A DNA stretch of 64,000 bases, taken from an uncultured Candidatus Saccharibacteria bacterium (GTDB lineage: Bacteria > Patescibacteriota > Minisyncoccia > Phycocordibacterales > UBA2100). The notes under the pieces are model-generated. The model saw only the letters and a program-made list of their open reading frames with translations, was not told where the DNA came from and did no database searches. The position numbers were made by a program, and so were the translations under genes. This document shows positions 11,885-31,627 of the stretch, in pieces; positions within the stretch are counted from its first letter, which is position 1, and every line of letters begins with the position of its first letter. The DNA lies in assembly GCA_964584225.1 (NCBI GenBank), contig CAZOZG010000002.1:5127-69126 (forward strand). The letters are read 5' to 3'.

Positions 11885-11968
11885 GATGAAGGGATACTAA
11901 CAGCTGCAACACAATCAGCAAGTACTAAAAAGAAGAGGGCGCCCCGCAGGGCGCCCTCACAGTATTCG

Positions 11969-12532: not shown

Positions 12533-12577
12533 TGGATTCCCCCGCTGTTGTTGGTATGAACTATCCCGTACTCTGTC

Positions 12578-14767: not shown

Positions 14768-14780
14768 AAATCACCAAAGA

Positions 14781-14818
14781 TCAAGGCGACGCCTTTAGGG
14801 ATCTTAAGGCGTCGCCTT
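14781..14818. promoter_or_regulatory. Intergenic hairpin with a 14-bp perfect stem between the NeuA-like stop and the NeuB-like start.
   Basis: CAAGGCGACGCCTT (14781..14794), loop TAGGGATCTT, AAGGCGTCGCCTTG (14805..14818). On the minus strand it is followed by ATCTTTGGTGATTTTTGA. Confidence 0.5.
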
Positions 14819-14822
14819 GCAT

Positions 14823-15658: not shown

Positions 15659-16660
15659 GTGAATATTTTCCTTGTATCGAACGACAAGGCCCCGACCGAT
15701 GCGTTCCTCAAACTCAGTCCTCACCTTATCGACCATGGACACAAAGTCAGCCATGCCGTTTTTGGTGGCGCCGGTGGCGGAGAGTGGGCTGACATTGCAC
15801 TTATAGGAATGTCGACGCCCGAAAAAAACGCTGAAATCGAAATCGCTGCGGCGCGCGAATGCATCCGTCTCGGTAAGCCATTCGGTTTCTACGCAGATGC
15901 GCATGGTGCGTGGACGCGGCCACACTTCGCGGAGTTCCGCGAAAAAGCCAGCTTCGTTTTCGTTGTCGCCGACGAGCCGGGCACCATGAAAATGTGGCCG
16001 AACGCCCGGATCATCAAAACGGGCAATCCGCTGTGGGCTCAGTACTTCAAGCCCGTCGACAGAAAAGCTGCTCGCGAGGCTATGTCGGCGTTCGACCAAG
16101 ATTTCGTCATCCTGTGTCCTGGTACGAAGAACAGGACACACAACTTGCTGGTCTGGAACGCAGTCATCCAGGCAGCGAAGGGCATACATACTGCACAGGT
16201 CGTCCTTTCACCGCATCCCGGCGATAAGACGGACCCAATGATCTATCAAGATCTCGCGCAACTCGCGGCGCAGGATGCTGTCTGCGTCGATATACCGCGG
16301 AACAAGACAGACGAGCTAGTCCCTGGGGCTGACGTCGTGATCAACGGCACATCCGTCCGCGTTCATGCAATTGCACGCGGAATTCCCGTGATCGACTACT
16401 ATGAGCCACTTTCGCAGACATGGCTCGAAAATGACACCGGCAAATCGAGAAGCTACTTCGCCGATTCGGGCGCCGTGCTTGGTTTGTACGGCAAACAAGC
16501 GAGCTGGCCTGCGCTTGCATCACTGTTCGATAAAGTCGCGAGAGATCCGAAGCTTCTGCAAAAGGGCCAGGAAGGTATCGTCGAAAATGTGTCTCAACAC
16601 GAGATGCTTGAGCGCATGCGAATCGTGCTCGAGCAAGTTGCTCAGTCGAAAGCTGCCTAA
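15659..16660 (+). CDS. GT-B-fold protein (MurG/PseG-like C-terminal domain). Candidate glycosyl- or sialyltransferase, or a nucleotide-sugar hydrolase.
   Basis: GTG start. The C-terminal segment PHPGDKTDPMIYQDLAQLAAQDAVCVDIPRNKTDELVPGADVVINGTSVRVHAIARGIPVIDY resembles the GT-B nucleotide-binding half. No confident family assignment. Confidence 0.3.
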   Translation: MNIFLVSNDKAPTDAFLKLSPHLIDHGHKVSHAVFGGAGGGEWADIALIGMSTPEKNAEIEIAAARECIRLGKPFGFYADAHGAWTRPHFAEFREKASFVFVVADEPGTMKMWPNARIIKTGNPLWAQYFKPVDRKAAREAMSAFDQDFVILCPGTKNRTHNLLVWNAVIQAAKGIHTAQVVLSPHPGDKTDPMIYQDLAQLAAQDAVCVDIPRNKTDELVPGADVVINGTSVRVHAIARGIPVIDYYEPLSQTWLENDTGKSRSYFADSGAVLGLYGKQASWPALASLFDKVARDPKLLQKGQEGIVENVSQHEMLERMRIVLEQVAQSKAA

Positions 16661-16705
16661 GCAGCACAACAAGAGGCGTCGGCCCATAGCCGACGCCTCA
16701 TTCTT

Positions 16706-18079
16706 TTACAACATTTCAAGAACCGCCTGCGCGACGCGTTCAGCCGATTTTCCGTCTACCTTATAAAGCATATCGTGTTTCAATACTTCTCTTTCTTTGC
16801 GTAAATACTCTGGATTTTCAAGAAACTTTTTGATTTCTGCTTCGAGTTCATCATGACTTTTCACAAGCGGCGCCGCACCGATCTGAGTGATGTGTTTGTA
16901 GTGATTGCGCTCATACACGCGCGCGACAGAATCCCAATACGACGGGTGATGATCGCCATCGTATCCAATCAAAATCACCGGCCTGTCATTTGCAGAGGCG
17001 TCGAGCGAGAGCGTCGACTCGGTGTTGATGACGACGTCGCTGTGCTTCAATGAATTTGCGAGATGTGCAATGTCTTTGTTGGTAAACGTCCACGCATACG
17101 TATTGCCAACGCCCATGTCGACCGAAAATTGCAGCTTATCAGAGAGATGCGTACCCGGTCGGTCGAAAATGAAGTGCTTCAATTTTAATTTTTCACTCGA
17201 ATCCGGATATTTCGGATGGAATCGCGCCAGAACCTGCAATGGTCCAAACCTTCCCTCCTCAATGCGCTTATCAAGCTCAATCATGATGTCGCTCGTAAAT
17301 GGTGTCTTCCAATCTCCAGGTACCGCAATCAAGATCATCCGCTTCTTGGGGTCACCACCGATGCCTGCGATGAATTGTTCGCGGGGCACGAAAATATCCT
17401 GTCGTGCATACACATCAAACTGCGGAAAACCGGTGATGACGATGTTTTGTGGCTTGTAATCGCCGAGCTCGATTGCCTCTTCTTTGTTGAACTCGTTGAA
17501 CACAAGTAAGCGATCCGCGCGCATGCGTGTAAATGCCTTGGTCGTCAGCACGTCCCAACTTTTCGCGGTCGTCGCCGTTTTCACGCCGTGTCGCTTCGCT
17601 TGCCGCATCAAGCGAAAATCTTCCGGCGAGAACATGTTGGGCGTGAAGACGAGATCAGGGTTGTATGTGTGAAAGAGATCCTCGCAGTAATCGTCAGGCG
17701 GCACCGTGTAGAGCCAGCGCAAAAATTCGCGCCACACGCGAAAGCGTCCAAGAAATCCGAAAACGCTGCCAACGCAAAATCGCCACAGCGGCCAGCCTTT
17801 GGAGCGCCACATATGCCGACGCAAGACAGCTGAGCGTGTCGGCAATGAATTCCATCCGATGAAATACCACAATCGCTCAGCAAAGGTCGTCGCTTCGGGA
17901 TGGCGTTCGATGAAGACGCGATCACTGCCGTAAGACGTGTGATAGTAGTCGAGACTGCCCTGCGCGCGGACGATGAGCACAAATCGATGCCCCGCCTGTT
18001 TCAAATATTCAAACGTGCCTGAGCGCAACACATTTTTCTCCGTGTCACCGTCGTAGACCGATATGAAAATGGTTTTCAT
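16706..18079 (-). CDS. TagF/KpsS-like GT-B transferase (CDP-alditol or CMP-sugar dependent family), tentative.
   Basis: Segments DIMIELDKRIEEGRFGPLQVLARFHPKYPD and VINTESTLSLDASANDRPVILIGYDGDHHPSYWDSVARVYERNHY resemble conserved blocks of CDP-glycerol glycerophosphotransferase / capsule-synthesis proteins. Confidence 0.3.
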   Translation of the reverse strand: MKTIFISVYDGDTEKNVLRSGTFEYLKQAGHRFVLIVRAQGSLDYYHTSYGSDRVFIERHPEATTFAERLWYFIGWNSLPTRSAVLRRHMWRSKGWPLWRFCVGSVFGFLGRFRVWREFLRWLYTVPPDDYCEDLFHTYNPDLVFTPNMFSPEDFRLMRQAKRHGVKTATTAKSWDVLTTKAFTRMRADRLLVFNEFNKEEAIELGDYKPQNIVITGFPQFDVYARQDIFVPREQFIAGIGGDPKKRMILIAVPGDWKTPFTSDIMIELDKRIEEGRFGPLQVLARFHPKYPDSSEKLKLKHFIFDRPGTHLSDKLQFSVDMGVGNTYAWTFTNKDIAHLANSLKHSDVVINTESTLSLDASANDRPVILIGYDGDHHPSYWDSVARVYERNHYKHITQIGAAPLVKSHDELEAEIKKFLENPEYLRKEREVLKHDMLYKVDGKSAERVAQAVLEML

Positions 18080-18804
18080 GGTTTTTGTGCGACGAGAATG
18101 TGCGAGACACCGAAAGGCAGATTGAGTCGGCGATTCACTGATCGCTCGACATCGATAACGTGCGCTAAGATGCCGTTGATCCAGGCAGGAATCCGCGACA
18201 AGCTGTTTGATAGTTTCTCGCCTTCAGGTTTTTTGTGATAGAAGCGCGCTACAAGCCATACCACCGGAAACATACAGATGTTCCAAAAGCCACTGTAGCG
18301 AATCTGCATGTTGTTGCGCGCAAAGAGTCCGACGAGTTCGCCACGCTTGTAGCGCCTGAGATGATGCCCGTAATCATCGTTTTCATTCCAGAGCGACGGA
18401 AACGCCGGCACCAATATGTAGGCCGAACCGCGCGACTTCAAGACGCGCGCGATCTCGGCAACCGTTTTCGTGTCGTCGATGTGTTCGAGTACGTCAGCGC
18501 AGACGATCGCGTCGACCGAATCACTGGGAAGCGGAATGTCTTCGGCTGAGGCAAGTAATGTTTCGTGATAGCCACGCGCACGCGCGTGTGCGAGCGCTTC
18601 TTCTGAAATATCGAGCCCAATCACTTTCTGAGCGTGAACGGCAAGGACGGGAAAATTCGCACCGACGCCGCATCCAAGATCCAATAGGACGCCGCGCTCT
18701 GCGGGAAAGCGCTCGAGCAAATCATTGAGGACGCGTCGGCGCGATACGTACCACCAACTCGTTTCTTCAAAGCCGGCAATTTCCTCGTGGCTATACGTTT
18801 CCAT
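18076..18804 (-). CDS. Class I SAM-dependent methyltransferase.
   Basis: Motif I LLDLGCGVGANFPVL, and post-I acidic residue VIGLDISEE. Confidence 0.7.
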   Translation of the reverse strand: METYSHEEIAGFEETSWWYVSRRRVLNDLLERFPAERGVLLDLGCGVGANFPVLAVHAQKVIGLDISEEALAHARARGYHETLLASAEDIPLPSDSVDAIVCADVLEHIDDTKTVAEIARVLKSRGSAYILVPAFPSLWNENDDYGHHLRRYKRGELVGLFARNNMQIRYSGFWNICMFPVVWLVARFYHKKPEGEKLSNSLSRIPAWINGILAHVIDVERSVNRRLNLPFGVSHILVAQKP

Positions 18805-19405
18805 GATCCTTCACGACGCGAAACATAAAGTGCACTTCTTCAAAGCCTCCGACCCAGAAACACCACACGCGTGAGCAGAAATAGGGCGAGAGGTTCGCGA
18901 AGAGATCAACGATCGAACCGAAGATGACACCAAACCAGTACTGATAACCAGCGAGTGTGATTCGCTTGAGATAGCGCTGCGCAAACCACGAGAGCCGCAT
19001 CGATTCTATTTTGAATTGAACTCCTTCGTAGCCGCCCTTAAATTTTGGATCAAAGTAAAGTGGGAAACTCACATCAAAACCGTGCTCGTGCTCCGGGTGA
19101 GAAAACCCGCGCGAGAAATGCGGCACACGAATCGAGACGAGTCCGCCGTTTTCCACGATCCGATGCAGCTCGCGCATCACCGCGAACGGCTTTTCGATAT
19201 GTTCCATCACGTGATCGGCTTCGACAAGTGAAAAACGATTGTCGGGAAATGGAAACGGCAGCTGATTGATGTTGTGCACGACGTCGGCGCCCACATTGGC
19301 TCGGAAATCCAAGTTGACATATCCGTCTTTCGGAAATTCACCACTCCCGAGATTGAGTTTGCGCGATTCCTCCGCGTGCATTGCGGGCATCGTAGCACAT
19401 CTCAC
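18791..19405 (-). CDS. Class I SAM-dependent methyltransferase (Methyltransf_11-like).
   Basis: LNLGSGEFPKDGYVNLDF...ADHVMEHIEKPFAVMRELHRIVENGGLV. Confidence 0.6.
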   Translation of the reverse strand: MRCATMPAMHAEESRKLNLGSGEFPKDGYVNLDFRANVGADVVHNINQLPFPFPDNRFSLVEADHVMEHIEKPFAVMRELHRIVENGGLVSIRVPHFSRGFSHPEHEHGFDVSFPLYFDPKFKGGYEGVQFKIESMRLSWFAQRYLKRITLAGYQYWFGVIFGSIVDLFANLSPYFCSRVWCFWVGGFEEVHFMFRVVKDHGNV

Positions 19406-21262
19406 CTATCGCATCCACGCGTCGTACCACAGCTGGAATGTCATTAGGGTCCACAATTTTTTGCGATGATCGCGCGTGCCGGATTCATGCTCGTGCAACA
19501 TACGCTGAATTGGCTCTGGTTTGAAAAAGCCACTGCGGCGCACCGAGTCGGTGGATAGCAATTGATGCGAGAGATCGCGCAATTCTTTCTGCAACCAGCG
19601 ACCAATTGGCACCCCAAAGCCTTGTTTTTTGCGCCACACATTTTCCAACGGCAATTTTTCACTCATGAGCCGCTTCAAAAGGTACTTGCCAGTAAGCCCG
19701 CGATATTTATATGAGTACGGAAGTGCAGAGACAAATTCCACGAGCGTATGATCGAGAAACGGTGCGCGCACTTCCAAGCCGTGCGCCATGCTCGCACGAT
19801 CGACTTTGACCAAAACCTGATCCATGAGGTAGGTGCGCGCGTATGACCATAAAAGGTCGTGATGAAATTGTTCTTTGTCTGCATGGATCGAAAAGAATTG
19901 ATCAAGGTGCGCATACGGTGACCGGCGTGCGGGAGTAATCAAAAGATCATTCGCCTCGCGATCATTGAACGCGCCGAGCCACTGTTGATGCCGATAGCGC
20001 GGATCGGTATCCGCGCCTTCGATAAATTTTTTGAGGACGAAATCTGCACTAAAATAGCCGTGACGGACAGGTAACGCATTGATCACAGGCTCGATGAGCG
20101 AACTGCGCAGGGCACGCGGAATTGCGCGATACCAGCTCACAAATTGTTCTGCACGAAAGGTCGGATAGCCAGCAAACAGTTCGTCGGCGCCGTCGCCGCC
20201 GAGCGCGACCGAGACGTGCTTTTTAGTGAAGGATGACAAAAGGTACGTCGGCAGCACCGACGCGTCGGCGAGTGGTTCATCGATGTAGCGAAACACTTCC
20301 GGAATGAGCTCGACGCAACGCGCGGAAGAAAATTGCTCTGCCGTATGCTCAACCCCGATTGTTTTTGCAGCGATTTTCGCATATGTAAGTTCGTCGAAAT
20401 CTGCATCGTCGAAACCGATCGAGAATGTCTTCACCGGTGCACGCGAGGTCTTTTTTGCGTAGTACGCGACCGTCGAGCTATCGATACCACCTGAGAGGAA
20501 CACTCCTAAGGGGACGTCGCTCATGAGGCGCTTTTCAACAGCGCGCGAGAGATGCCGATCGAGCATCTCTCGCGCGTGTTCAAATGAGATCGAGTGTGAT
20601 TGTCGCGACAACGACCAGTAAATTTCCTCTTGCGGCTCACTCCCCTTTTTCGAAACGACGTAGCCACCTGGCTGTACCTTGCGCACACCTTTGAAAATCG
20701 AATATGGCGTCGGAACGTATTCGTACGTGAGATACATGCGCACGGCATCCGGATCAATTTCTTTTTTGAATGCGGGGTGCTGCATCAACGATTTCAATTC
20801 GGAGCCGAAAATCAAGGTGTCGTCGAATACTCCCCAGTACAGGGGTTTCTTCCCCATGCGATCGCGCACAAGATACACGGTGTCGCCACGATGATCGTAG
20901 AGCGCGAAGGCGAACATGCCCTCGAGCTTTTCAAACGCTTTCGCCCCGTATCGCTCGAAGAGCGCAAGAATCACCTCGGTGTCGGTGTTGCTCGTGAATA
21001 CGTAGCCTTGAATTTCTTTTTTGAGTTCTTGGAAATTATAGATTTCGCCGTTGAAAATGATGGTCGTGTGGCCGCTCGCGCTCGTCATTGGCTGATGACC
21101 TGCTGCTGATAGGTCGATAATCGAAAGACGCGTGTGCGCAAAACCAATATGACCTGCATACCAGATACCTCGATCGTCCGGCCCGCGGCGACCCAATGCA
21201 TTCGTCATTTTATCGAGCGTCGCCGTGTCGCCCTTCCCGTAAAATCCGCCGATGCCGCACAT
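19406..21262 (-). CDS. asnB: Asparagine synthase (glutamine-hydrolysing) family amidotransferase.
   Basis: MCGIGGFYGKGD N-terminal nucleophile, and the SGGIDSS PP-loop. Confidence 0.85.
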   Translation of the reverse strand: MCGIGGFYGKGDTATLDKMTNALGRRGPDDRGIWYAGHIGFAHTRLSIIDLSAAGHQPMTSASGHTTIIFNGEIYNFQELKKEIQGYVFTSNTDTEVILALFERYGAKAFEKLEGMFAFALYDHRGDTVYLVRDRMGKKPLYWGVFDDTLIFGSELKSLMQHPAFKKEIDPDAVRMYLTYEYVPTPYSIFKGVRKVQPGGYVVSKKGSEPQEEIYWSLSRQSHSISFEHAREMLDRHLSRAVEKRLMSDVPLGVFLSGGIDSSTVAYYAKKTSRAPVKTFSIGFDDADFDELTYAKIAAKTIGVEHTAEQFSSARCVELIPEVFRYIDEPLADASVLPTYLLSSFTKKHVSVALGGDGADELFAGYPTFRAEQFVSWYRAIPRALRSSLIEPVINALPVRHGYFSADFVLKKFIEGADTDPRYRHQQWLGAFNDREANDLLITPARRSPYAHLDQFFSIHADKEQFHHDLLWSYARTYLMDQVLVKVDRASMAHGLEVRAPFLDHTLVEFVSALPYSYKYRGLTGKYLLKRLMSEKLPLENVWRKKQGFGVPIGRWLQKELRDLSHQLLSTDSVRRSGFFKPEPIQRMLHEHESGTRDHRKKLWTLMTFQLWYDAWMR

Positions 21263-21265: not shown

Positions 21266-22204
21266 CTAGCAGTTTATCTTTTCAGCGATGCGATACGTGC
21301 GTTTGCCCTGCCCTTCGTAATAGATGCGCGTCAATACTTCCGCGATGAGCCCCATGAGAATGAATTGCACGCCAATCAAAATGAGAAAGATCGTGAGAAG
21401 CGGCAGCGGCGTCAGGATAAACGACACGCCCCAGGCAATTTTAAGTACGACAGCCCACAACCCGCATGCTGCTCCGAGAATAATGCTCGCAAAACCGACC
21501 AATCCGAAGAAATGCATCGGGCGCGCGAGGTAGGTCGTCAAAAACTTCACGACCAAGAGATCCAGGAGGACTTTGACCGTGCGCGAGAGATTGTATTTGG
21601 AAACCCCGTGCACCCGCGGGTGGTGCGTTACTTCGATTTCAGTGACACGCCCGCCATTCCACGCGGCATAGGCCGGGATGAAGCGGTGCATTTCACCGTA
21701 GAGCATAACGCCGTCGAGCGCGTTTCTTCGGTATGCTTTGAGCGAACAGCCGTAATCGCTGATGCGAACGCCGGTGACGCGCGCGATAAGCGCGTTGGCC
21801 ATTTTCGAAGGCAGGGTGCGCGTGAGCGAATTGTCTTGGCGATTTTTACGCCAGCCGGAAACGACGTCATACCCTTCATCGAGCTTCGCAACAAGACGCG
21901 GAATATCAGCGGGATCATTCTGGCGATCTGCGTCCATCGGAATGATGATGCCACCCTGCGCGAGCTCGAAGCCGGCAGCCATCGCCGCGGTCTGACCAAA
22001 ATTGCGACTGAACCGCAGTACACGCACTGATGTATCCATCTTCGCGAGTTCACGCAACTCGGCGAAACTTTCGTCACGCGAACCGTCGTCGACAAAAATA
22101 ATTTCATATTCGCCCATTCCTTTCACAACCGGCATGAGTCGCTCGTACAAGGGTTTCAAATTCCCCGCTTCGTTATAAACCGGTATGACGATGGAGTACT
22201 TCAT
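21266..22204 (-). CDS. GT2 polyprenyl-phosphate sugar synthase-like glycosyltransferase (DPM1/ArnC/GtrB-like) with C-terminal TM helices.
   Basis: MKYSIVIPVYNEAGNL...IIFVDDGSRDES...DADRQNDP. The start is set at the internal ATG 22204, which forms an ATGA overlap with the upstream gene's stop. The track ORF is 42 codons longer. Confidence 0.75.
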   Translation of the reverse strand: MKYSIVIPVYNEAGNLKPLYERLMPVVKGMGEYEIIFVDDGSRDESFAELRELAKMDTSVRVLRFSRNFGQTAAMAAGFELAQGGIIIPMDADRQNDPADIPRLVAKLDEGYDVVSGWRKNRQDNSLTRTLPSKMANALIARVTGVRISDYGCSLKAYRRNALDGVMLYGEMHRFIPAYAAWNGGRVTEIEVTHHPRVHGVSKYNLSRTVKVLLDLLVVKFLTTYLARPMHFFGLVGFASIILGAACGLWAVVLKIAWGVSFILTPLPLLTIFLILIGVQFILMGLIAEVLTRIYYEGQGKRTYRIAEKINC

Positions 22205-23580
22205 GAGCTTCGCTGTATCATACGCCGCAATCGAGCAATAAGATACGCCCCGCCGACGACTGCGCCGGTAAAGATCAACGGATTGATGGGATAACGATAA
22301 CGACCGTTTACCCCGGCGCCGGCAGACCACGAGAGACCGAGGTAATAGAGAACGCTCAAGAGCATGACGAGTGCGAAAATGCGCTGCGTACCTCCGCGTA
22401 TCACAAGGACGATTGAGCCGACAAAAAACAGCGCGCTCACGATGACCCAGAACAAGCGACCGACAAGCGGGACAATGAGTACCGGACCTGTCTCACTGAC
22501 GACGCGCTCGAAGGTTGCAATTGGCCCCTCTGTAATCAGCATGTGCGTCGGCGAAAACGTGTAGTCGAAAGAGTGCACGAGATTCCAGTGTTCGAGGTAA
22601 TACGTCCATGCGTCGTTCGTGAAAAACGCGATCGCAACCGAGACGAACGATTTCACCGTTGCGCCAGGGTTGTCGATCATAATGGCGAGCCCCTCGCGGA
22701 AGAGCGTCGGCGATAGCGAAAGATTTTGCTGAATCGTATCCAGCGGAATGTTGTGTCGCTTTGCGAAATCTGCTTCGAGCGCGTCTTTCGCGCTTCGCCA
22801 CGCAACACCGTCGCGATACGAAATAATCGTGGCACCGAGATCAGAGTACACATTTTGAAGGCCACCGGAGGAGAAGCTCACGACGCCAAAAATTCGGTCG
22901 TTTCGAATAAGCCACGGACTCGAAATGATGAGAAACGGAATAATCGCCGCAGCGACGTATTTCAGATATGCGCGCGGCGATTCGACCAAAAGCACGACAA
23001 GGATGAGCAACGCAGGTGTGAATTCTGCGATGGGACGCGTCAGCGCCGCGAGCGCGCAGAGCGCGCTCGCGGCGCATAGTGCAACAACCGATCGCTCGGT
23101 CACGTAGCGAAACACACAGTAGATTGCCAGCGTGTTGATCGTCGCAAACAACGTCTCCGTCAGAATCGAAAAATTGATAAAAATCGAATAAGGCTCAAAC
23201 GCCATGAGCGCTGCGGCGACGAGCGCGATGCGCTCGTCGCTCCCAACCATATACGCAATCTTGTACGTAAAAAGAATCAACACGAGTGACAATACAATTT
23301 GCAACCAAATGACCGGTAGGTCCGAGCCCGTTACCGACTCTGATGCCGCGATCATCAAGGGCAAGAGCGGTGTTCGGATACTGTCCGGCGCATATGGCGA
23401 ACTCGTCGCCATCGAGTATCCGTTCCCCGCGAGCATATTGTGCGCAAGTTGCGTGTAATTCCCGGTGTCACCAAGCACAAAAAAATCGGGTCGACCTGCC
23501 GAGTCGAGCGCCAAGAAAAGCACAAGTCGGAGGAGAAGCGCGAGCCCAAGAATCCACCAGAGCCTTTTGGGAATATTCAT
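22201..23580 (-). CDS. GT-C-fold membrane glycosyltransferase (ArnT/PMT, GT39/83-like), paralog 1.
   Basis: Polytopic. The N-terminal loop LGDTGNYTQLAHNMLAGNGYSMATSSPYAPDSIRTPLLPLMIAA is shared with paralogs 24756..26141 and 42341..43705. Confidence 0.55.
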   Translation of the reverse strand: MNIPKRLWWILGLALLLRLVLFLALDSAGRPDFFVLGDTGNYTQLAHNMLAGNGYSMATSSPYAPDSIRTPLLPLMIAASESVTGSDLPVIWLQIVLSLVLILFTYKIAYMVGSDERIALVAAALMAFEPYSIFINFSILTETLFATINTLAIYCVFRYVTERSVVALCAASALCALAALTRPIAEFTPALLILVVLLVESPRAYLKYVAAAIIPFLIISSPWLIRNDRIFGVVSFSSGGLQNVYSDLGATIISYRDGVAWRSAKDALEADFAKRHNIPLDTIQQNLSLSPTLFREGLAIMIDNPGATVKSFVSVAIAFFTNDAWTYYLEHWNLVHSFDYTFSPTHMLITEGPIATFERVVSETGPVLIVPLVGRLFWVIVSALFFVGSIVLVIRGGTQRIFALVMLLSVLYYLGLSWSAGAGVNGRYRYPINPLIFTGAVVGGAYLIARLRRMIQRSS

Positions 23581-24674
23581 ATGCTCTTCGATGGCGCAGC
23601 ACGGAAAATCCAGCGGAGCGCGAAGAAACTTTCAAGCGCGATCACGATATTGGTAATGACGGCAGCAAGCATGTACCACAATCCAGCGTATTCGACCAAG
23701 ACGTACATCATCACCAAATTGATGGCAAGGTTGAATATCGCGACAGAAAAATGCTGCGACATTTGTGTGCCGATTCTCTCGGTTGCTGCGTTTCTGAAGG
23801 TCCAGTACTTTTGCATCGCGAAACTTGCCATAAACGCAAAGACAAACGCGAGCGCGGAGGAAAACAAATACCAAATGGAGACGTACTCCGTAAAAATATA
23901 GAGAAGCGCGAAGTTGATCACCGCTGCAAGTCCGCCGGAAATGATAAAACGCGTGACTTTCATCGCAGAACTTCTTCGATGTGCGCCGATCCCGAGTCGA
24001 GCGAGGAAAATCGCGAGTACGATTTCGATGCCGTGTACCCAATTGAGCTTTTTGCCACTTTGTTTCGTGCGCGCTGCATACGAAATTGGTATCTCGACTG
24101 CGCGGCCACTCCTGATGAGCACCAGCGTCAGGTCGACTGCATCAAAGACAAAGTCATCGTGCGAGGATTGTAGGAGCTCCCGCACGTACGCGCGCGGGAA
24201 CACTTTGTAGCAAGTGAATATGTCAGAAAGACGTGTGAAAAAAAGAATGTTAAACATCCGCGTCACCAACTCACCACCATGGAAAAAGATTAAGCTATAC
24301 GGGACGTTATTTTGTTGCATCGAACGGGACCCAAAAACAGAATCTGCGCGCCCTTCGATAATCGGTGCGAGCAATTTCATGTATTCAGCCGGATCGTATT
24401 CAAGATCTGCATCTTGAATAATGATGTATTCGCCGCGCGCCGCTTTCAATCCGTCTTTCACCGCTGCTCCTTTCCCACCGTTTCGTAGGCGATAGAGAAG
24501 TGTCACGTTTTCAAGTCCGCGTAATACCGATTTCGTCTCATCGCGAGAGCCATCGTCAACGACGATAATTTCTTTTTGCCATCCGCTTGGAAGAGGCGCG
24601 TTTTTGACGCGCCGAATGAGCTCGGCGATACTCGCCGCTTCGTTGTAGCACGGAATCACAACCGAAAGGGTCAT
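23577..24674 (-). CDS. GT2 glycosyltransferase fused to a C-terminal GtrA-like membrane domain.
   Basis: MTLSVVIPCYNEAASIAELIRRV...VVDDGSRDET, then KVTRFIISGGLAAVINFALLYIFTEYV (GtrA-like). An alternative start lies at 24734. Confidence 0.65.
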   Translation of the reverse strand: MTLSVVIPCYNEAASIAELIRRVKNAPLPSGWQKEIIVVDDGSRDETKSVLRGLENVTLLYRLRNGGKGAAVKDGLKAARGEYIIIQDADLEYDPAEYMKLLAPIIEGRADSVFGSRSMQQNNVPYSLIFFHGGELVTRMFNILFFTRLSDIFTCYKVFPRAYVRELLQSSHDDFVFDAVDLTLVLIRSGRAVEIPISYAARTKQSGKKLNWVHGIEIVLAIFLARLGIGAHRRSSAMKVTRFIISGGLAAVINFALLYIFTEYVSIWYLFSSALAFVFAFMASFAMQKYWTFRNAATERIGTQMSQHFSVAIFNLAINLVMMYVLVEYAGLWYMLAAVITNIVIALESFFALRWIFRAAPSKSI

Positions 24675-24755
24675 ATGAAAAAAGTGGCTCTCCCACTCAT
24701 TAAAAACACTCTCACGGAACGCTGCATCTATCAAGTCGCGTGCTATTGTAGGCGG

Positions 24756-26141
24756 ATGTCAGGAATCTTGGACACACTTTTCAGCCCGTTTCGACGCAAT
24801 CGAGGGCAGTCGTTCTTCGAGCGCGATCACGCGTGGTTTTTCTTGCTTTTCGCCTTTCTGCTGCGCTTTGCGGTCTTTTGTTTTATCCTGGTTTGTTTCG
24901 GGGACACGGGATTTTTCTTGTCGCCCTTTTCCGACGGTCAGGGATACGTCACGATTGCGCAAAATCTTCTCCCCGGTCACGGATTTTCGCTCGATACAGC
25001 CGAACCATATTCCGCCGACATTAAGCGCGTCCCGCTCTATCCGCTCTTTCTCGCGTCAACATTCGCACTCACAGGTGGCGCGTGGTGGCTCGCAGCTCTA
25101 CTGCAAGTCGTCATCGGCTCGGCCGTCGTCTTTTGGATATACCGACTCACTTTAGAGCTGTGGGAAAAACGTGCGGCATTTTTTGCGGCAGTCTTCGCTT
25201 CGATTCAACCATTCGCAATCTTTCTTTCGACGCAACTTTTGGCTGAAGCGCTTTTCTCGGCAGTACTTTTCGCGTCATTCGTGTTTCTTTTCCGCGCGCT
25301 TAGGTCAGAAAAACGATATGTATTTTTGATTGCTGGTCTTATCGCGGGCCTTGCGATGCTCGTGAAGCCTGCCGCTGAATATGTGCCCGTCTTGATGACT
25401 CCCCTCATTGCGCTCGCTGAGCGCGGTGTGAAGCGGCTTTCGAATCCTGTGCTCTATCTCCTCGGGATTGCTCTGATTATCTCGCCATGGATTATTCGAA
25501 ACGACATGGTCTCCGGTATTCCGACCATTTCGTATGAATCGAGCGTTCTCTTTTCGCTGCATCTTGCAGGCTACAACGCCTACAAAGCGACCGGCGCTGC
25601 CGGCAATGAGGCACACTATCGACCAGATGACACTTATGAAGCTGTCGTCGGCACACCACAGAGCGAATATTTCATGCGCGTGTTGCGGACGTTTGCGTCG
25701 GATCCGATCGGGTTTTCAAAATATCTCGCTATCACGACGGTGCCGTTTCTCTTCGGTGATGGGTTCGTCACCATTCACAACGCACTCACGACAAACTCGT
25801 CGGTGCCAGCGTGGGATTTCTCAACCTCCGCCTCGATGCTCGGACGCACCATCGGCTTTGGCGTTTTGCCACCACAGCTTCTGGTGTTGAGTATTGTGAG
25901 TAAAGCACTGTGGGCGCTCGTGTTGCTCGCGGCGTTGTGGGGATTTGTCTCTCTCGTGTTGAAAGGTACACTACACCTCTACGTCGGCATCGCGTGCGCG
26001 CTCGCAATTACGTATTTCATGCTCGCTGGCGGACCCGTGAATTCAGCGCGCTACCGGCAACCCGTCGAACCATTATTCTTCGTGCTTGCTGGAATTGGAG
26101 TCGCGAATATATGGTCACGCATCGAACGTACACAAAAATAA
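24756..26141 (+). CDS. GT-C-fold membrane glycosyltransferase (ArnT/PMT-like), paralog 2.
   Basis: FSDGQGYVTIAQNLLPGHGFSLDTAEPYSADIKRVPLYPLFLAS and multiple TM helices. The track ORF begins at a TTG (24576); ATG candidates are 24675 and 24756. Confidence 0.5.
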   Translation: MSGILDTLFSPFRRNRGQSFFERDHAWFFLLFAFLLRFAVFCFILVCFGDTGFFLSPFSDGQGYVTIAQNLLPGHGFSLDTAEPYSADIKRVPLYPLFLASTFALTGGAWWLAALLQVVIGSAVVFWIYRLTLELWEKRAAFFAAVFASIQPFAIFLSTQLLAEALFSAVLFASFVFLFRALRSEKRYVFLIAGLIAGLAMLVKPAAEYVPVLMTPLIALAERGVKRLSNPVLYLLGIALIISPWIIRNDMVSGIPTISYESSVLFSLHLAGYNAYKATGAAGNEAHYRPDDTYEAVVGTPQSEYFMRVLRTFASDPIGFSKYLAITTVPFLFGDGFVTIHNALTTNSSVPAWDFSTSASMLGRTIGFGVLPPQLLVLSIVSKALWALVLLAALWGFVSLVLKGTLHLYVGIACALAITYFMLAGGPVNSARYRQPVEPLFFVLAGIGVANIWSRIERTQK

Positions 26142-26142: not shown

Positions 26143-26799
26143 ATGAGCAACGCTGTCGCTGAGGAAAATGCATTAAAGATGGAGCTCGCGGAAATCGTCC
26201 CGGAATACTATTCCCAATCCGGCATCGTGCAGTGGCTTTTTCACCGTCGGCTCAAGAGCGCGCTCGCGTTTCTGAAACGCTTCCCTGCGGCCTCGCTCCT
26301 TGACGCTGGCTGCGGTGATGGCTCATTTATGCAACTCATAGCGAGCGATGACACTTTGAAAGCCCTGCATGCGACTGGACTCGACATTAATCCGCGGATC
26401 ACGTCTCTCAAGAACGCAATGCCGCACTATTCGTTTGTAGTCGGAAGTCTACTCAAAATGGATCTTCCGGACGAATCATTCGATACAGTCGTGTCCCTCG
26501 ACGTGCTTGAACACTTTGAAAACGCCGACGTGCCCGTCGGCGAAATACGACGGGTCTTGAAAAAGGGCGGTCATTTCATCACGAGTGAACCTGTTGAGTC
26601 ACTACTCTATAAATCGCTCCGATTTCTTCTCAAGGGAACATTTTCGCAGGAGTCCGGGCCCGGCTCGAGCCCGCACCACTACAACGCACGCGGAATCGAT
26701 CAGGTCGTCCGCGCGGCCGGTTTTATCCGTCTCGAATCAAAGAAAATTCCCCTCCCCACCCCACTCGATCTCTTTCACATCAACTTGTACGAAAAGTAA
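26143..26799 (+). CDS. Class I SAM-dependent methyltransferase.
   Basis: LLDAGCGDGSFMQLIA...VVSLDVLEHFENADVPVGEIRRVLKKGGHFI. The start ATG lies 1 nt after the upstream TAA. Confidence 0.65.
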   Translation: MSNAVAEENALKMELAEIVPEYYSQSGIVQWLFHRRLKSALAFLKRFPAASLLDAGCGDGSFMQLIASDDTLKALHATGLDINPRITSLKNAMPHYSFVVGSLLKMDLPDESFDTVVSLDVLEHFENADVPVGEIRRVLKKGGHFITSEPVESLLYKSLRFLLKGTFSQESGPGSSPHHYNARGIDQVVRAAGFIRLESKKIPLPTPLDLFHINLYEK

Positions 26800-26835: not shown

Positions 26836-28017
26836 CTACTGCACTTCGCGGACAGGAACAGGAAATACGTATCGGTGCGGCCCGGATAATTTTTTCTTCA
26901 CTTCATCGAAATAGTCATGCACAAACACGACAAACACGTCGGGCTTGTGCTTTTCCAAATACGACATTGGCACGATCGGTATATGCGTTCCGGGAGTATA
27001 TTTATGCTGCTTAATCGGTGTCTCGTCGACAACAAACGAAATGAGGTCGGGTCCGATATTCCCGAAATTACATATTGTGGAGAGGCGCGCCGGTGCAGCA
27101 AAACCCGCGACGAGGAGGCCTTCCGACTTATACCTTTCAAGCGTTGCGCGAAGATCCGCAATTTGTGTGCGAGCTTCCTTCCCGAACGTAAGCACCCGCT
27201 CGGGCGTCAACCTGTTCGATTCATAGGCAAGATGCTGCGCCACGCTTTCACTCGGCGGTGCACCAGTTCCCTTCTTCTCTACGGTCGCTCGTAGCGAGCC
27301 ACCGTGAGAAGAAGTCTCTTCGACGTCGGACAAGTACATGCCATGTCGCTGGAACAGCTTTTCAAGTGATGTCACGGAGAAATACGAGATACGATCAAGG
27401 TAGAATCGCTCGAAGCGCATGTCTTTGAGTACCGTATCTACATACTCGATCTCGAGAATAAATTTCCCGTCTTCGGTGAGTAATTCTTTTACGTCATCGA
27501 TAAACGTGTGTGGATCGCCTAGGTGCGAAAACATGCTGAATCCTATTATCACGTCTGGCCGACCATGTTTCGAGACAATTTCTTTGACCGTTGTGGCATC
27601 AAAGAACGCGGTGATCGTTGTGAGGCCAGCTTCGTTGGCGATTTTAGATACGTTGATGGCTGGCTCGACACCAATTGCCGCAACACCCATTTCTTTCAGC
27701 GGTTTCAGCAGTATGCCATCGTTGGAACCGATATCAACGACAAATTTTGCGCGTGCCAATGTCTTTGCAAAATTCCTATAATGAGTAACAACGCCAGCAT
27801 TCACGGACGAAAGATGGTAGTAATCTTCAAACATTTTCTCTCGAGAAATTGTTGTCCCAATGTGTACGCTTTTACATGTTGGACAAAAGTACATTTTCAA
27901 CGGGTAAAATTCCTCGGTCGCAAATTCTTCTTTTGTCGGATACTTAATCGCAAGTGGTTGCCGGCCCAGATCAAGAAATTCAATGGTGTTTTCTGCGACG
28001 CATAGTCTGCATTGCAT
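26836..28017 (-). CDS. NDP-hexose C-methyltransferase family (TylC3-like: Zn-ribbon N-terminal domain plus C-methyltransferase domain).
   Basis: CRLC...LGRQPLAIKY...FCPTCKSVHIG has the CxxC...CxxC N-terminal layout of the TylC3-type family, followed by a Rossmann methyltransferase core. Confidence 0.55.
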   Translation of the reverse strand: MQCRLCVAENTIEFLDLGRQPLAIKYPTKEEFATEEFYPLKMYFCPTCKSVHIGTTISREKMFEDYYHLSSVNAGVVTHYRNFAKTLARAKFVVDIGSNDGILLKPLKEMGVAAIGVEPAINVSKIANEAGLTTITAFFDATTVKEIVSKHGRPDVIIGFSMFSHLGDPHTFIDDVKELLTEDGKFILEIEYVDTVLKDMRFERFYLDRISYFSVTSLEKLFQRHGMYLSDVEETSSHGGSLRATVEKKGTGAPPSESVAQHLAYESNRLTPERVLTFGKEARTQIADLRATLERYKSEGLLVAGFAAPARLSTICNFGNIGPDLISFVVDETPIKQHKYTPGTHIPIVPMSYLEKHKPDVFVVFVHDYFDEVKKKLSGPHRYVFPVPVREVQ

Positions 28018-28083
28018 ACGATGTGTTCACCACTATACCTTCTTTTGGTACTCGAGGAAATACAGCGCGTCAGAGTCGTGTCT

Positions 28084-29094
28084 TTACAGCCTCACGCGCT
28101 TGCCTGTCCGCGCCGATGTCCGTAAGGCTTCCATGACCTTCGCTTGCTGGAGAATTCTTGATCTCATCGACTTCATCTCTCCTCTATTCGTCTGTGTGAC
28201 GACATCATAGAAGTAGCGAAAACTAAGCGCGAATTGATTGACCGCCGGCACAGCGATCGTTTCGATCATATCTTTCATTCCATCATTTGTAATCAACTCA
28301 ACAAGCGGCACGAACGACGGCGGGATCGCAAACGCGCGGTTCGTGCGCACGATACCCTTCGATCCCCAGATCGAGTAGGTGTTTTGATAGTGATTATTAA
28401 AACCAAACGCCATAAAGGCGCTTCTGCCGCCGGGAAACTCTAATAGCGCGGAGCCGTGAACGTCGACCTCGTGACCGTTTTTGGAAAGAGTGCACATGAC
28501 TGCATGCGGTTCCTCGGCAAAAATTTTTCGGGCCATGAAGGCGGTGTAGCAACCACAGTCATTCAGCGCTCCGCCTCCTAGATCCTTTCGATAGCGGATG
28601 TCTTCTTGCGGGAACGGAGGAAACCCGTACGCCCCTTGCCACACCAGAGGAATTCCGATGGCTCCCTTTCGGAGGAGCGACATTATCCTCGCGTGCTGGG
28701 GATGAAATTCGGGGACGAAATTTTCATAGAGCGCGACGCCATATTTTTCTGATGCGCGGAGCATGCGCTTGGCGGAGGAAAGACTGCCGGTGATAGATTT
28801 CTCTACGATACAGTGCTTCCCCGCCCGCATCGCTTGCGTCACCCATCGTTCCTGCACGCCGACGGGAAGCGGACTATAGATGATGTCAATGCGTTTGCGG
28901 GCGATGAGCGATTCGTACGATTTTATTTCCAGGCTGTGCTTTGCCGCTCACGCGCTTGCTTTTTCCCGTGTACGACTCGCCATCACCACGAGTTCCGCCT
29001 GTTCTATGCTCCTCAAGGCACCGATGCCATACCGCTCGGCAATATTCGCCGTCCCCAGTATTCCCACGCGCAGTTTCCTTACAGGACGGCGCAT
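28084..29094 (-). pseudogene. Gfo/Idh/MocA-family sugar oxidoreductase (candidate NDP-hexose 3-ketoreductase) interrupted by an in-frame TGA at 28950..28948.
   Basis: Manual translation from ATG 29094 gives MRRPVRKLRVGILGTANIAERYGIGALRSIEQAELVVMASRTREKASA*AAKHSLEIKSYESLIARKRIDIIYSPLPVGVQERWVTQAMRAGKHCIVEKS..., all in one frame. The track shows only the GTG-initiated downstream part 28084..28857. Confidence 0.55.
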
Positions 29095-29852
29095 ACGTTA
29101 CGTGCGAGCGAATTCACGACGTTGTCTACGCGTAAGAGCTTCTGAATCTGAAGGCGCGTCAGCCAGATGTAGTCGTCTGTAATCGGCACGTTCTCATGTT
29201 CGTCGACTTCGACAATCATGGTGCGATTGATCTTTCGATAAAACCGTCCGCCATCTTCGACGCCGCTCACGGTCGTGAGGAGACGCCCCTTGCCGCCCTC
29301 TCTGAAATATTCCACGAGCCGGGGATTCTTCCCTCGATGCGCTCGAGAGAGGTTACCTTCTGAGACCTGCAGAGCCGGAGATATCTGGACGCGGTCTACA
29401 TTTCCCGGCTCGAATTTGGCATAAAACAAGTAGTGGGGGACGCCGCCGATTACCTTGCGTATAACGCCCGAAATCCCGACTTCGGTCTGCTTCACCATCG
29501 GTTGCGACCATGAGGGAACTTCCCGGTCAGCGGCTCCGGTAACCTCGACTCCAATAATTGAGAAGAATTTTCCGCTCTCGTGCGCAATGCAGCCGGTTTT
29601 CGGATCGATCTTCCAATGCTGCATGCCCGTAATATTTGTTTCCTCAACGCGCGCCGGATACTCCGTTTGCTTTTTTCTGAGCCATGCGAGTACGCCTTCA
29701 ACGTCTCCGGATTTTTCAGCGAGCGCAAGCTCTTCGACACGCTCTGCCGCAGCGGTGATTGCTCGCGTGACGGTAAAGCCGGCATTTCCCACCAGTTTCG
29801 CAATATGTTCCGCAATGCCCATAGGTATGTACAGATCGGAGGGTGATGTCAC
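29079..29852 (-). CDS. NDP-hexose 2,3-dehydratase family (EvaA/TylX3-like), single-domain form.
   Basis: The C-terminal block DDYIWLTRLQIQKLLRVDNVVNSLARNVCAVL resembles the conserved end of hexose 2,3-dehydratase repeats. At 257 aa it is about half the usual two-repeat length. Confidence 0.45.
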   Translation of the reverse strand: MTSPSDLYIPMGIAEHIAKLVGNAGFTVTRAITAAAERVEELALAEKSGDVEGVLAWLRKKQTEYPARVEETNITGMQHWKIDPKTGCIAHESGKFFSIIGVEVTGAADREVPSWSQPMVKQTEVGISGVIRKVIGGVPHYLFYAKFEPGNVDRVQISPALQVSEGNLSRAHRGKNPRLVEYFREGGKGRLLTTVSGVEDGGRFYRKINRTMIVEVDEHENVPITDDYIWLTRLQIQKLLRVDNVVNSLARNVCAVL

Positions 29853-30578
29853 TCACGCCGCGCGCTTTGCGACTTCATTTGAGACTCGTAAGAGCGCGTC
29901 AAACGTTCCCGCATCAGACCAGCCGCCCCGGACGACTGCAAAGGTGAGTTTCTTCTTTTTGATATAGACGTTGTTGACATCGGTGATTTCCAGCTCGCCC
30001 CGCGCTGACGGTTTCAGTGTTTTGATTATTGAGAAAACGTTGGAGTCAAAGATATAAAATCCTGTCTGCGCAAGTTCCGACCTCGGCTCTTTCGGCTTCT
30101 CTTCGATCGTGAGAATCCGCTTCCCCGAGGTATCAAAGACCGGCACACCGAAACCTATGGGATTGTGCATCTCCTTGAAAAAGACAAGTGCGCCTCCTTT
30201 GAATTTTTTAAGTTCCTTTTTGAAATCCTTTTCGAAAATGTTGTCACCGAGAATGACCGCAACGTTGTCATCCTTCACAAAATCCTCCGCGTATTTCAGT
30301 GCATCGGCAATGCCGCCATTGTTGGTATCTTGGAGTGCATAGGAGAGCTTGACCCCATACTCAGTGCCAGAGCCGAGAAAGTTCATAAAGTGACCTGCGT
30401 GTTCGCGCCCGCAGACAATCATGATATCGCGTACGCCAGATTTTCTGAGTGTCTCCATCGGGTAGATAATCATCGGCTTGTTGTACACCGGCAGGAGATG
30501 CTTATTAGTAATGCGCGTCAGCGGGCTAAGGCGTGTTCCAAGGCCGCCCGCGAGGATCACTCCTTTTGTCTCTCTCAT
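29853..30578 (-). CDS. rmlA: Glucose-1-phosphate thymidylyltransferase (short form).
   Basis: KGVILAGGLGTRLSPLTRITNKHLLPVYNKPMIIYPMETL. The start forms an ATGA overlap with the rmlB stop. Confidence 0.75.
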   Translation of the reverse strand: MRETKGVILAGGLGTRLSPLTRITNKHLLPVYNKPMIIYPMETLRKSGVRDIMIVCGREHAGHFMNFLGSGTEYGVKLSYALQDTNNGGIADALKYAEDFVKDDNVAVILGDNIFEKDFKKELKKFKGGALVFFKEMHNPIGFGVPVFDTSGKRILTIEEKPKEPRSELAQTGFYIFDSNVFSIIKTLKPSARGELEITDVNNVYIKKKKLTFAVVRGGWSDAGTFDALLRVSNEVAKRAA

Positions 30579-31627
30579 ACCTTCGCGGAATGACCTTTCC
30601 ACAAATCGATGTGCGGATTAAAAACGCCTGTCCGCTGCCTGACGTTGTCTATCCAGGTGCGATGTGCGAGATACCACTCGATTGTGCTTTTAAAGGCCTC
30701 AGGAAACGAGTGCGAGGGTTTCCAACCGAGCTCACGCCGTATACGCGTGCTATCGATGGCATAACGACGATCGTGGCCCGGGCGATCCGGCACGTACTCA
30801 ATCCACGACTCATCGCGACCGAAGTGCGCAAGGATCATCGATGCGATGGTGCGATTATCCGTCTCATTGTCTGCACCGATGTTGTAGACCGCACCCGGCT
30901 TTCCCGCCATGAGGCAACGCAGGAGCGCATCACAATGATCTAAGACGTAAATCCAGTCGCGGACATGCTTCCCGTCACCGTACAGGGGCAATCGTTTACC
31001 TTCGAGCATGCGCACGATAAAAAACGGGATGAGTTTTTCCGGATACTGGTTTGGGCCGTAGTTGTTGGAACAATGGGTAACGACGACCGGCACACCCCAC
31101 GTCGCGTGAAATGCGCGACAGAGCAAATCGCCGCCGGCTTTTGTCGCAGCGTATGGCACATTCGGCTGGAACGCAGTACTTTCATGAAAGCGCTCTTTCC
31201 CCGTCAGGGGAAGCGTGCCGTATGTCTCGTCAGTCGAGACCTGCACGAATTTCGATACTCCAGACGCTTTGACTGCCTCGAGGAGGTGGTAGACGCCCTC
31301 GATGTTCGTTTTGATGAATTCGAGTGCGCCGACATGGATCGAGCGATCGACGTGCGTCTCCGCTGCAAAATTAATCACGTAGTGAGGTCGGAAATTCTCA
31401 AACACTCGTGTGACCGCCTCAGCATCCGCGACATCGCCGAGTACAAAGGTATACCGCGGGTCGTTCTCGATAGCAGTCAGATTTTCAAGATTTCCGGAAT
31501 AGGTGAGCCTGTCGAGATTGACGATGCGCACGTCACTGTGCTTACTAAGAATCGAGCAGATGAAATTTGACCCGATGAAGCCGGCGCCACCACACACCAA
31601 TACGGTTTTACCGTTTAGATCCGACAT
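30575..31627 (-). CDS. rmlB: dTDP-glucose 4,6-dehydratase.
   Basis: KTVLVCGGAGFIGSNFI...YAATKAGGDLL (YxxxK), an extended SDR. Confidence 0.85.
   Translation of the reverse strand: MSDLNGKTVLVCGGAGFIGSNFICSILSKHSDVRIVNLDRLTYSGNLENLTAIENDPRYTFVLGDVADAEAVTRVFENFRPHYVINFAAETHVDRSIHVGALEFIKTNIEGVYHLLEAVKASGVSKFVQVSTDETYGTLPLTGKERFHESTAFQPNVPYAATKAGGDLLCRAFHATWGVPVVVTHCSNNYGPNQYPEKLIPFFIVRMLEGKRLPLYGDGKHVRDWIYVLDHCDALLRCLMAGKPGAVYNIGADNETDNRTIASMILAHFGRDESWIEYVPDRPGHDRRYAIDSTRIRRELGWKPSHSFPEAFKSTIEWYLAHRTWIDNVRQRTGVFNPHIDLWKGHSAKV

Follow-up and report, generated by a model that had tools for sequence, protein, structure and literature searches.

Three paralogous GT-C glycosyltransferases and two possibly shared lipid-sugar synthases in a surface-glycan island of a Parcubacteria-type genome

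We analysed a 64,000-nucleotide stretch of DNA (contig CAZOZG010000002.1, positions 5,127 to 69,126; hereafter the window) from an uncultured bacterium of the Patescibacteriota and found that it encodes three old paralogues of membrane-embedded glycosyltransferases (GTs) of the GT-C fold, here termed B, D and E, together with two membrane-anchored family 2 enzymes (GT2), termed A and C, of the type that makes polyprenyl-phosphate sugars. Our reading, which we hold at a probability of about 0.72, is that A and C would supply shared lipid-linked sugar donors to GT-C enzymes working on the outer face of the membrane, within a surface-glycan island of Parcubacteria of the Candidate Phyla Radiation (CPR). 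The reading is carried by the pairing of B-type GT-C and A-type GT2 genes in all 13 distinct loci compared, and by relatives in which GT-C domains are fused to the kinds of protein encoded next to B, D and E. All five open reading frames (ORFs) that a first-pass annotation of this DNA had delineated were recovered. Its idea of a synthase, a GT-C and a GtrA-type partner acting together proved right in its donor logic and is now much better supported; its extension to triplicate modules and three separate decorations is not supported.

Three GT-C paralogues and their class

The 459-aa product of gene B (22201–23580, minus strand) matches Pfam PMT_2 (PF13231; ArnT/PMT-like, in the neighbourhood of CAZy families GT39 and GT83) with 36.0 bits (E = 1e-8) and, alone among the three, PMT (PF02366; 28.3 bits), the latter in a partial match restricted to residues 92–199. 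For D (24756–26141, plus strand, 461 aa), the PMT_2 match amounts to 56.1 bits (E = 6.6e-15). Both B and D pass the PMT_2 gathering threshold of 26.1 bits, whereas E (42341–43705, minus strand, 454 aa) stays marginally below it with 25.7 bits (E = 1.5e-5); yet homologues of E carry PMT_2, and E itself is homologous to B and D from end to end. End-to-end alignments yielded 26% identity for B/D (E = 2e-31), 26% for B/E (E = 2e-18) and 27% for D/E (E = 3e-24), a full-length likeness far beyond chance that bears out the earlier proposal of three paralogous GT-Cs. In a neighbour-joining tree, the three fell into separate orthologous clades (16 orthologues of B, 9 of D and 5 of E), with the B and D clades as sisters and with D and its nine orthologues (51–57% identity) forming a monophyletic group. 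Judged by alignments and tree, B, D and E are old paralogues and not recent duplicates. A HMMER search with B retrieved 7,800 cluster representatives at E ≤ 1e-3 compared with 78 at E ≤ 1e-30, showing how small a branch the B clade is within a very large family. The closest homologues of the encoded proteins come from metagenome-assembled genomes of Kaiserbacteria, Sungbacteria and the “Parcubacteria group”. By these homologues and by gene order, the window belongs to a Parcubacteria (CPR) genome; identical proteins are encoded on an NCBI contig of 71.9 kb and in the Logan assembly of run SRR12313478. As to the start of D, the NCBI gene call (P0150, 488 aa) is 27 codons longer than the ORF beginning at 24756, and a start at this position is plausible because conservation in the family sets in at F-F-E-R-D-H-A-W.

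The strings GDTGNY, SDGQGY and PDSVGY, which the first-pass annotation had read as a conserved loop common to the three proteins, are present, mutually aligned and homologous. They belong to a D-x-x-x-Y motif in which the Asp and the Tyr are each kept in 113 of 115 family members, and inspection for a catalytic Asp in loop 1, as suggested at the time, located a candidate in every paralogue (Asp38 in B, Asp60 in D and Asp47 in E, aligned with one another). In the same 115-sequence alignment, further positions are near-invariant as well, in B numbering Y42 (113, like D38 itself), R69 (109), E142 (113, E or D), R182 (115, R or K), W223 (111), N227 (112) and R427 (113). The Asp follows about 10 residues past the first transmembrane (TM) helix, TM1, and the N-terminus is rich in Lys and Arg; from these two features loop 1, and with it the Asp, is predicted to face the outside, as in other GT-C enzymes. 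By these residues, all three proteins look catalytically competent.

When the PDB was searched by sequence, neither D by itself nor a 24-sequence family profile gave a match even at E ≤ 10, and the GT-C classification accordingly rests on Pfam and on fold comparison. Structures were predicted for B (pLDDT 88.1, pTM 0.89) and E (pLDDT 93.6, pTM 0.92); the predicted fold is polytopic and superposes on solved GT-C enzymes, and a Foldseek search with the B model returned ArnT as the top match. Together, these data establish that B, D and E are enzymes with the GT-C fold and belong to the PMT_2 (ArnT/PMT) sequence superfamily. An assignment to permeases outside the GT-C class, named in the first-pass annotation as the outcome that would speak against it, was not obtained. 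That the three proteins are transporters or scaffolds merely resembling GT-Cs is hardly credible in view of a loop-1 Asp and charged residues that are near-invariant in 115 relatives, and of the obligatory linkage to lipid-sugar synthases, including fusions to them, described below.

Within this superfamily, the paralogues could be placed neither with ArnT (GT83) proper, as none of them matched the NCBIfam ArnT model at E ≤ 0.1, nor, by their motifs, with the protein O-mannosyltransferases (GT39), which are marked by a DE motif and a PMT_4TMC domain and, in eukaryotes, also by a MIR domain. The DE dipeptide is absent from loop 1, which reads G-D-T-G, S-D-G-Q or P-D-S-V instead, and Pfam detected no PMT_4TMC or MIR domain in B, D or E.

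Donor synthases and conserved gene partnerships

Gene A (21266–22204, minus strand, 312 aa) encodes a Glycos_transf_2 domain (Pfam E = 3.6e-34) followed by two C-terminal TM helices. It aligns with ArnC (PDB 9hwj; E = 5e-61, residues 2–308) and, along the entire protein, with Synechocystis GtrB (5ekp; E = 2e-43), which identifies A, by sequence, as a polyprenyl-phosphate glycosyltransferase of the ArnC/GtrB type and agrees with its initial description as a DPM1/ArnC-like GT2. The score of A lies far below the cut-offs of two equivalog families of narrower function, with 236.9 bits versus the 529 needed for NCBIfam ArnC (NF007986) and 172 versus 500 for PgfS. We considered 4-amino-4-deoxy-L-arabinose as the sugar of A by analogy to ArnC and rejected it on the basis of this far sub-cut-off score and of Pfam scans that revealed neither ArnA nor ArnB in the window.

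Gene C (23577–24674, minus strand, 365 aa), described before as a GT2-GtrA fusion, indeed combines Glycos_transf_2 (E = 1.8e-31) with GtrA_DPMS_TM (E = 6e-19), and residues 1–346 of 365 align with the dolichol-phosphate mannose synthase (DPMS) of Pyrococcus furiosus (PDB 5mlz; E = 3e-20); four to five TM segments are predicted. The domain and full-length matches show C to be a DPMS-type GT2 fused to a GtrA-like four-helix membrane domain. Both A and C thus display the features of polyprenyl-phosphate glycosyltransferases, namely a GT-A domain with a DXD motif (DAD in either protein), C-terminal TM helices and full-length similarity to known members. Type-III DPMS enzymes are defined by DADxQHPP, Arg117, Arg131, Ser135, Lys178, Asn248, Asn277 and Phe338 (PMC12992685). 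In the HMMER alignment to 5mlz, C retains DAD, Arg117 and Asn248, while QHPP is replaced by EYDP (DADLEYDP), Arg131 by Leu, Ser135 by His, Lys178 by Asp and Asn277 by Ser, and Phe338 falls beyond the aligned region. C therefore shares the design of type-III DPMS but lies outside the group as defined by its motifs, and mannose, considered as the sugar of C by analogy to DPMS, was rejected because most of the defining residues are changed. A crystallographic study from 2026 proposes that the GtrA-like membrane domain of the P. furiosus enzyme flips the product (PMC12992685), and C is a putative polyprenyl-phosphate sugar synthase that may likewise flip its own product.

We then asked how many synthases and flippases the window holds, using Pfam scans that covered roughly 55 of its 58 called ORFs. 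A and C are the only two membrane-anchored GT2 proteins of the polyprenyl-phosphate-sugar-synthase type among them; a further GT2-like ORF (31661–32653) gave a weak match and has no TM helix. The single GtrA-like domain is the GtrA_DPMS_TM part of C; it forms the membrane portion of a DPMS-type enzyme and is not a separate flippase. The scans detected no gene for a free GtrA, SMR or MATE protein, and the small membrane ORFs at 5601–5924, 51365–51670 and 51667–52137, like other unannotated ORFs, had no Pfam match in this search for flippases. The modules said to exist in triplicate are therefore represented by two synthases, one fused GtrA-like domain and no free flippase, and at most two donors are encoded in the window where three distinct lipid-linked monosaccharide decorations had been envisaged. 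Three complete and independent modules, each with a synthase, a flippase and a GT-C for a monosaccharide of its own, would be in keeping with three ancient GT-C paralogues that each head an orthologous clade and with two different synthases adjoining two of the GT-Cs; as the count fails within the window, the conserved partner of D is a methyltransferase and E has no GT2 neighbour, we rate this arrangement as very improbable.

Comparison with relatives gave a clearer picture of which genes belong together. Thirteen distinct B-type loci were examined, this window counted; a scan of GTDB species-representative genomes with the B-family alignment returned 3 loci, and a metagenome scan added 11. 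Immediately after the B-type GT-C, 13/13 loci have an orthologue of A (53–73% identity), which answers the call for a co-occurrence analysis with GT2 partners, and an AsnB-type glutamine amidotransferase (54–68% identity; 19406–21262, minus strand, in the window) comes next after A in all nine loci that are long enough on that side. Across these Parcubacteria loci, B-A-AsnB forms an invariant gene core. A GtrA module, fused or free, is found within about 8 kb in seven of the nine loci that extend far enough. Orthologues of C (51–59% identity) occur in some B-type loci only and at varying positions (L003, L022 and L025 in our numbering); elsewhere, a free GtrA gene is located near the B-type locus (L007, L021, L024), and free GtrA genes stand beside orthologues in L007, L009, L021, L024 and L026. 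As a separate observation, in the Parcubacteria metagenome locus L024 (11243–14254) the B-A-AsnB core is succeeded by a GtrA-like gene standing free and by an E-like GT-C of 868 aa, about twice the usual length.

The partners of D and E differ from those of B. D starts 81 nt from the start of C on the opposite strand, so that the divergent position next to the GT2-GtrA fusion, to which the first-pass annotation had drawn attention, is real here; the adjacency is not conserved, however, and the conserved partner is a S-adenosylmethionine (SAM)-dependent methyltransferase. In the window this is MTd (26143–26799, plus strand, Pfam-assigned), which makes up a divergent pair with D; in L010 and L011 its counterpart (58–63% identity) directly follows the D orthologue, to which a gene for a Wzy_C-TPR protein lies divergent. 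The Wzy_C-TPR protein of the window (8785–10782, minus strand) is O-antigen ligase/polymerase-like (Wzy_C, E = 4.9e-21) with C-terminal TPR repeats. C orthologues adjoin such a gene in L003 and L025, which loosely links C, D and Wzy_C-TPR. More generally, Wzy_C-TPR genes recur beside C-, D- or E-type genes in the CPR loci L003, L009, L010, L011, L025 and L027; the protein may be a polymerase, a ligase or an O-oligosaccharyltransferase. The two closest orthologues of E (47–48% identity) are each followed immediately by an overlapping free GtrA gene, and a more distant one has a methyltransferase and GT4 enzymes as neighbours.

Several GT-C relatives are joined covalently to such partners. Fusions with GT2 were found in both orders, as GT2::GT-C (P0052, with an SMR gene just before it) and GT-C::GT2 (P0219), and those with GtrA as GtrA::GT-C (P0252) and GT-C::GtrA::GT-C (P0195). 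GT4 domains are fused as GT4::GT-C (P0223, P0261) or on both sides as GT4::GT-C::GT4 (P0229, P0264), methyltransferases as GT-C::methyltransferase (P0199, P0212, P0256, P0257, P0272) and deacetylases as GT-C::deacetylase (P0206, P0298). The fused domains (GT2, GtrA, GT4, SAM-methyltransferase, deacetylase) are the very types of protein that neighbour the GT-Cs in the window, and their covalent linkage in relatives is strong evidence for functional partnership. Along with the invariant B-A synteny, these fusions back the proposed combination of synthase, GT-C and GtrA. The linkage and fusions to synthase-type GT2 enzymes lend indirect support to the idea that B, D and E use a polyprenyl-phosphate-linked sugar donor.

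Operons and acceptors in the glycan island

B and its partners belong to a larger unit than the module described in the first-pass annotation. C, B, A, AsnB, MTa, MTb and a TagF-like gene are arranged head to tail on the minus strand with neighbours that overlap by up to 14 nt or lie no more than 3 nt apart, and constitute one seven-gene operon with C as its first gene. AsnB carries the Pfam domains Asn_synthase (5.8e-102), GATase_6 and GATase_7; its best NCBIfam match, below cut-off, is the exopolysaccharide-associated (XrtA/PEP-CTERM) amidotransferase TIGR03108 (552 bits). The SAM methyltransferases MTa (18791–19405, minus strand) and MTb (18076–18804, minus strand, 2e-22) both belong to Methyltransf_11; MTa has an orthologue in L021, and orthologues of MTb (37–51% identity) come after AsnB in L005, L007, L013 and L021. 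The last operon gene (16706–18079, minus strand) encodes a TagB/TagF-like protein of the glycerophosphotransferase family (Glyphos_transf, 3.8e-9) and has orthologues in L005, L007, L010, L013 and L021. A bidirectional terminator-like hairpin at 16673–16699 (12-bp stem with nine G-C pairs) ends the operon as well as the convergent ORF at 15659–16660 on the plus strand. The latter encodes 333 aa with no Pfam or NCBIfam match and no TM helix, and counterparts with 41–49% identity occupy the same position in L010, L013 and L014. A scan for consensus promoters returned fewer sites than in shuffled sequences and was uninformative.

E is embedded in an operon of a different type, with GT4 and UDP-glucose-dehydrogenase genes and no GT2 of its own. 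It overlaps by 4 nt at its start with one GT4 gene (43702–44715, minus strand) and at its end with another (41289–42365, minus strand), and lies downstream of a gene of the UDP-glucose/GDP-mannose dehydrogenase family (44720–45610, minus strand) and of a further GT4 (45637–46914, minus strand). The longest ORF of this last GT4 and the divergent deacetylase gene share about 220 nt; the true start of the GT4 gene probably lies downstream of the first start codon. The deacetylase (46696–47682, plus strand; Polysacc_deac_1, 1.4e-22), of the polysaccharide deacetylase family, adjoins the E operon and is a possible partner by analogy to the ArnD-type processing of lipid-linked sugars. The GT4 fusions raise the alternative that one or more of the GT-Cs, and E above all, extend a backbone, that is, support outer-face growth of a lipid-anchored glycan primed by GT4 enzymes, as in mycobacterial lipoglycan and arabinan synthesis, where PimA/PimB are followed by PimE, or in the manner of AftA/Emb. 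We regard this as unlikely, though worth keeping in view: Pfam places the proteins with PMT_2 and not with PimE or the Emb/Aft families, the partner in the closest orthologues of E is GtrA and not GT4, and the proteins are small (~455 aa) and have no carbohydrate-binding module.

Both operons are part of a surface-glycan island of roughly 45 kb (8.7–53 kb), bordered by SecA/GatB on one side and MurC/MurD on the other. Besides Wzy_C-TPR, the TagF-like gene, several methyltransferases and two AsnB paralogues, it includes NeuB-cupin, a PseF-like cytidylyltransferase, HAD and kinase genes, RmlA, RmlB, a 2,3-dehydratase, two C-methyltransferases, a GDP-mannose dehydratase, Wzx, six GT4 genes, a UDP-sugar dehydrogenase and the deacetylase. 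This context bears on the nature of the acceptor. With the same chemistry, the acceptor could be protein, in that Ser/Thr-rich surface proteins (pilins, S-layer or membrane-anchored proteins) would be O-glycosylated, as exemplified by streptococcal GtrB/PgtC2 and PgfS/PgfM1 (PMC11092751) and by actinobacterial Pmt. We consider this unlikely, though deserving of serious attention, as the loop has D-T, D-G or D-S in place of DE, PMT_4TMC and MIR are missing from the Pfam matches, the operons are of the polysaccharide type with Wzx, GT4, TagF-like and nucleotide-sugar genes, and no candidate gene for a Ser/Thr-rich substrate was identified beside the GT-C genes.

Some further features of the island and its surroundings were recorded. 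The genes at 10823–15560 (minus strand) encode a NeuB-cupin fusion (515 aa), the PseF-like cytidylyltransferase, a HAD phosphatase, an AAA_33 kinase-like protein and a GFO oxidoreductase; the set resembles a nonulosonic-acid pathway, with scores below the NeuB, PseI and PseF cut-offs, and is kept beside GT-C genes in L007, L010 and L011. The two AsnB-type amidotransferases, at 19406–21262 (minus strand) and 39528–41300 (plus strand), both have the catalytic Cys2. RmlA, an RmlB-like dehydratase, a single-domain (257 aa) NDP-hexose 2,3-dehydratase, a ketoreductase-like GFO protein and two sugar C-methyltransferases, encoded at 26836–31627 and 37059–38321, suggest a pathway to a branched 2,6-dideoxyhexose of the type known from antibiotic sugars. 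In this deoxysugar cluster, the GFO/IDH/MocA oxidoreductase gene (28084–29094, minus strand) is interrupted by one in-frame TGA at 28948–28950 (…REKASA*AAKHS…), with the Rossmann N-terminus and the C-terminal domain sharing one frame across it. Recoding of TGA was dismissed, as this codon terminates 16 of 47 genes in the window, and the gene looks like a pseudogene or the result of a sequencing error. Just outside the island, a homologue of TrwB/TraG-like type IV coupling proteins (53105–54934, minus strand) is followed by a 398-aa ORF (54986–56182) with one TM helix and no family match. No tRNA genes were found in the window.

A shared-donor reading and its significance

According to the reading that we favour, A and, separately, C would use a nucleotide sugar to glycosylate polyprenyl phosphate at the cytoplasmic face. 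The lipid-linked sugar would then be flipped, the sole candidate encoded in the window being the GtrA-like domain of C, and B would glycosylate its acceptor at the outer face with the product of A, Asp38 acting as the catalytic base. C would make a second donor, and D and E might draw on the product of C or A to modify other acceptor sites, such that one donor and one flippase could be common to several GT-Cs, an arrangement known from Lactococcus and Shigella. Tailoring of the sugar or glycan would fall to the methyltransferases and to AsnB (19406–21262), which would presumably amidate it. As acceptor we favour the island's own glycopolymer in the form of a Wzx-flipped heteropolysaccharide and/or a phosphate-containing polymer of the TagF type, while E and its GT4 neighbours would probably complete a lipid-anchored glycan begun by those GT4 enzymes.

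A number of points weigh against this shared-donor scheme. The lack of a free GtrA, SMR or MATE gene leaves the flipping step to the membrane domain of C, and flipping by DPMS-type membrane domains has so far been suggested by one crystallographic study only (PMC12992685); at the same time, the window is part of a genome, and further synthases or flippases may lie elsewhere in it. No sugar can be assigned, with A at 237 versus 529 bits for ArnC and C without most of the type-III DPMS residues. The functions put forward for the B, D and E clades are predictions from sequence and fold, and that D and E would draw on C or A is deduced from loose linkage only, given that the C-D adjacency is not conserved and that the D orthologues in L010 and L011 are not beside a GT2. 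Finally, the data are equally compatible with a protein acceptor.

The components and the logic are already textbook knowledge for monoderm and diderm bacteria (PMC11127046, PMC8035078), and the hallmark features of three-component systems have been set out (PMC11127046). In L. lactis, three GT pairs (CsdAB, CsdCD, CsdEF) operate with one flippase, CflA, and B. subtilis likewise has three pairs; there is thus precedent for several GT-A/GT-C pairs with a common GtrA flippase and for donors used by more than one GT-C, and many of the GT-Cs are of the PMT_2 type and decorate teichoic acids and wall polysaccharides (PMC8035078). The window resembles such multi-component systems, among them GtrA/GtrB/GtrC of Shigella and Salmonella phages, CsbB/GtcA/YfhO and GtlA/GtlB of Bacillus and Listeria, and CsdAB/CD/EF with CflA, in its type of membrane-anchored GT2 synthase, its GtrA-family element, its several PMT_2-type GT-C paralogues in one genome and its excess of transferases over flippases. 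It differs from them in that the window has no free GtrA and the GtrA-like helices are instead fused to the second GT2, that an AsnB-type amidotransferase belongs to the invariant core, that methyltransferases recur as neighbours or fusions, and that the host is a CPR bacterium. From the lipid A aminoarabinose pathway (ArnC/ArnT with ArnD and ArnE/F), it is set apart by the low ArnC score of A, the missing ArnT match and the absence of ArnA/ArnB from the window; lipid A synthesis is not expected of Parcubacteria. C shares with the P. furiosus type-III DPMS (5MLZ, 9EP0) the GT2 domain, the interface region and four TM helices (GtrA_DPMS_TM); it is unlike that enzyme in being bacterial, the family having been described in archaea, and in most of the defining residues. 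Pmt1/2/4, actinobacterial Pmt, PgfS/PgfM1 and GtrB/PgtC2 differ from the genes analysed here in that the latter have a polysaccharide-like context.

In the literature searched, we found no description of such systems in CPR bacteria. What is mildly new here is the invariant B-A-AsnB core, the recurrent partnership with methyltransferases and the finding that the sole GtrA-type element is part of a DPMS-like synthase from a bacterium. A bolder combination of these elements, which we put forward as speculative and judge to be quite improbable as a whole, is that a Parcubacteria-specific cassette of B-type GT-C, ArnC-like synthase and AsnB (usually with methyltransferases and a TagF-like protein, and beside a nonulosonic-acid-like pathway with NeuB-cupin) would install a previously undescribed amidated and/or methylated surface sugar from the outside, while C would make donors for several GT-Cs and flip them itself, in place of a separate flippase; the decoration could then be a determinant of attachment between episymbiont and host.

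The current understanding of such systems is left unchanged, and the window provides an ordinary example of the known decoration of surfaces from the outside. It does yield gene pairs that lend themselves to testing (B with A and AsnB, D with its methyltransferase, E with GT4 or GtrA), as well as a bacterial DPMS-like enzyme, C, on which the idea of a self-flipping synthase could be examined. For the organism itself, the commitment of about 45 kb and three GT-C paralogues to surface glycans, despite the tiny genomes of CPR bacteria, suggests that organisms thought to live attached to a host invest heavily in the sugar coat of their outer face.

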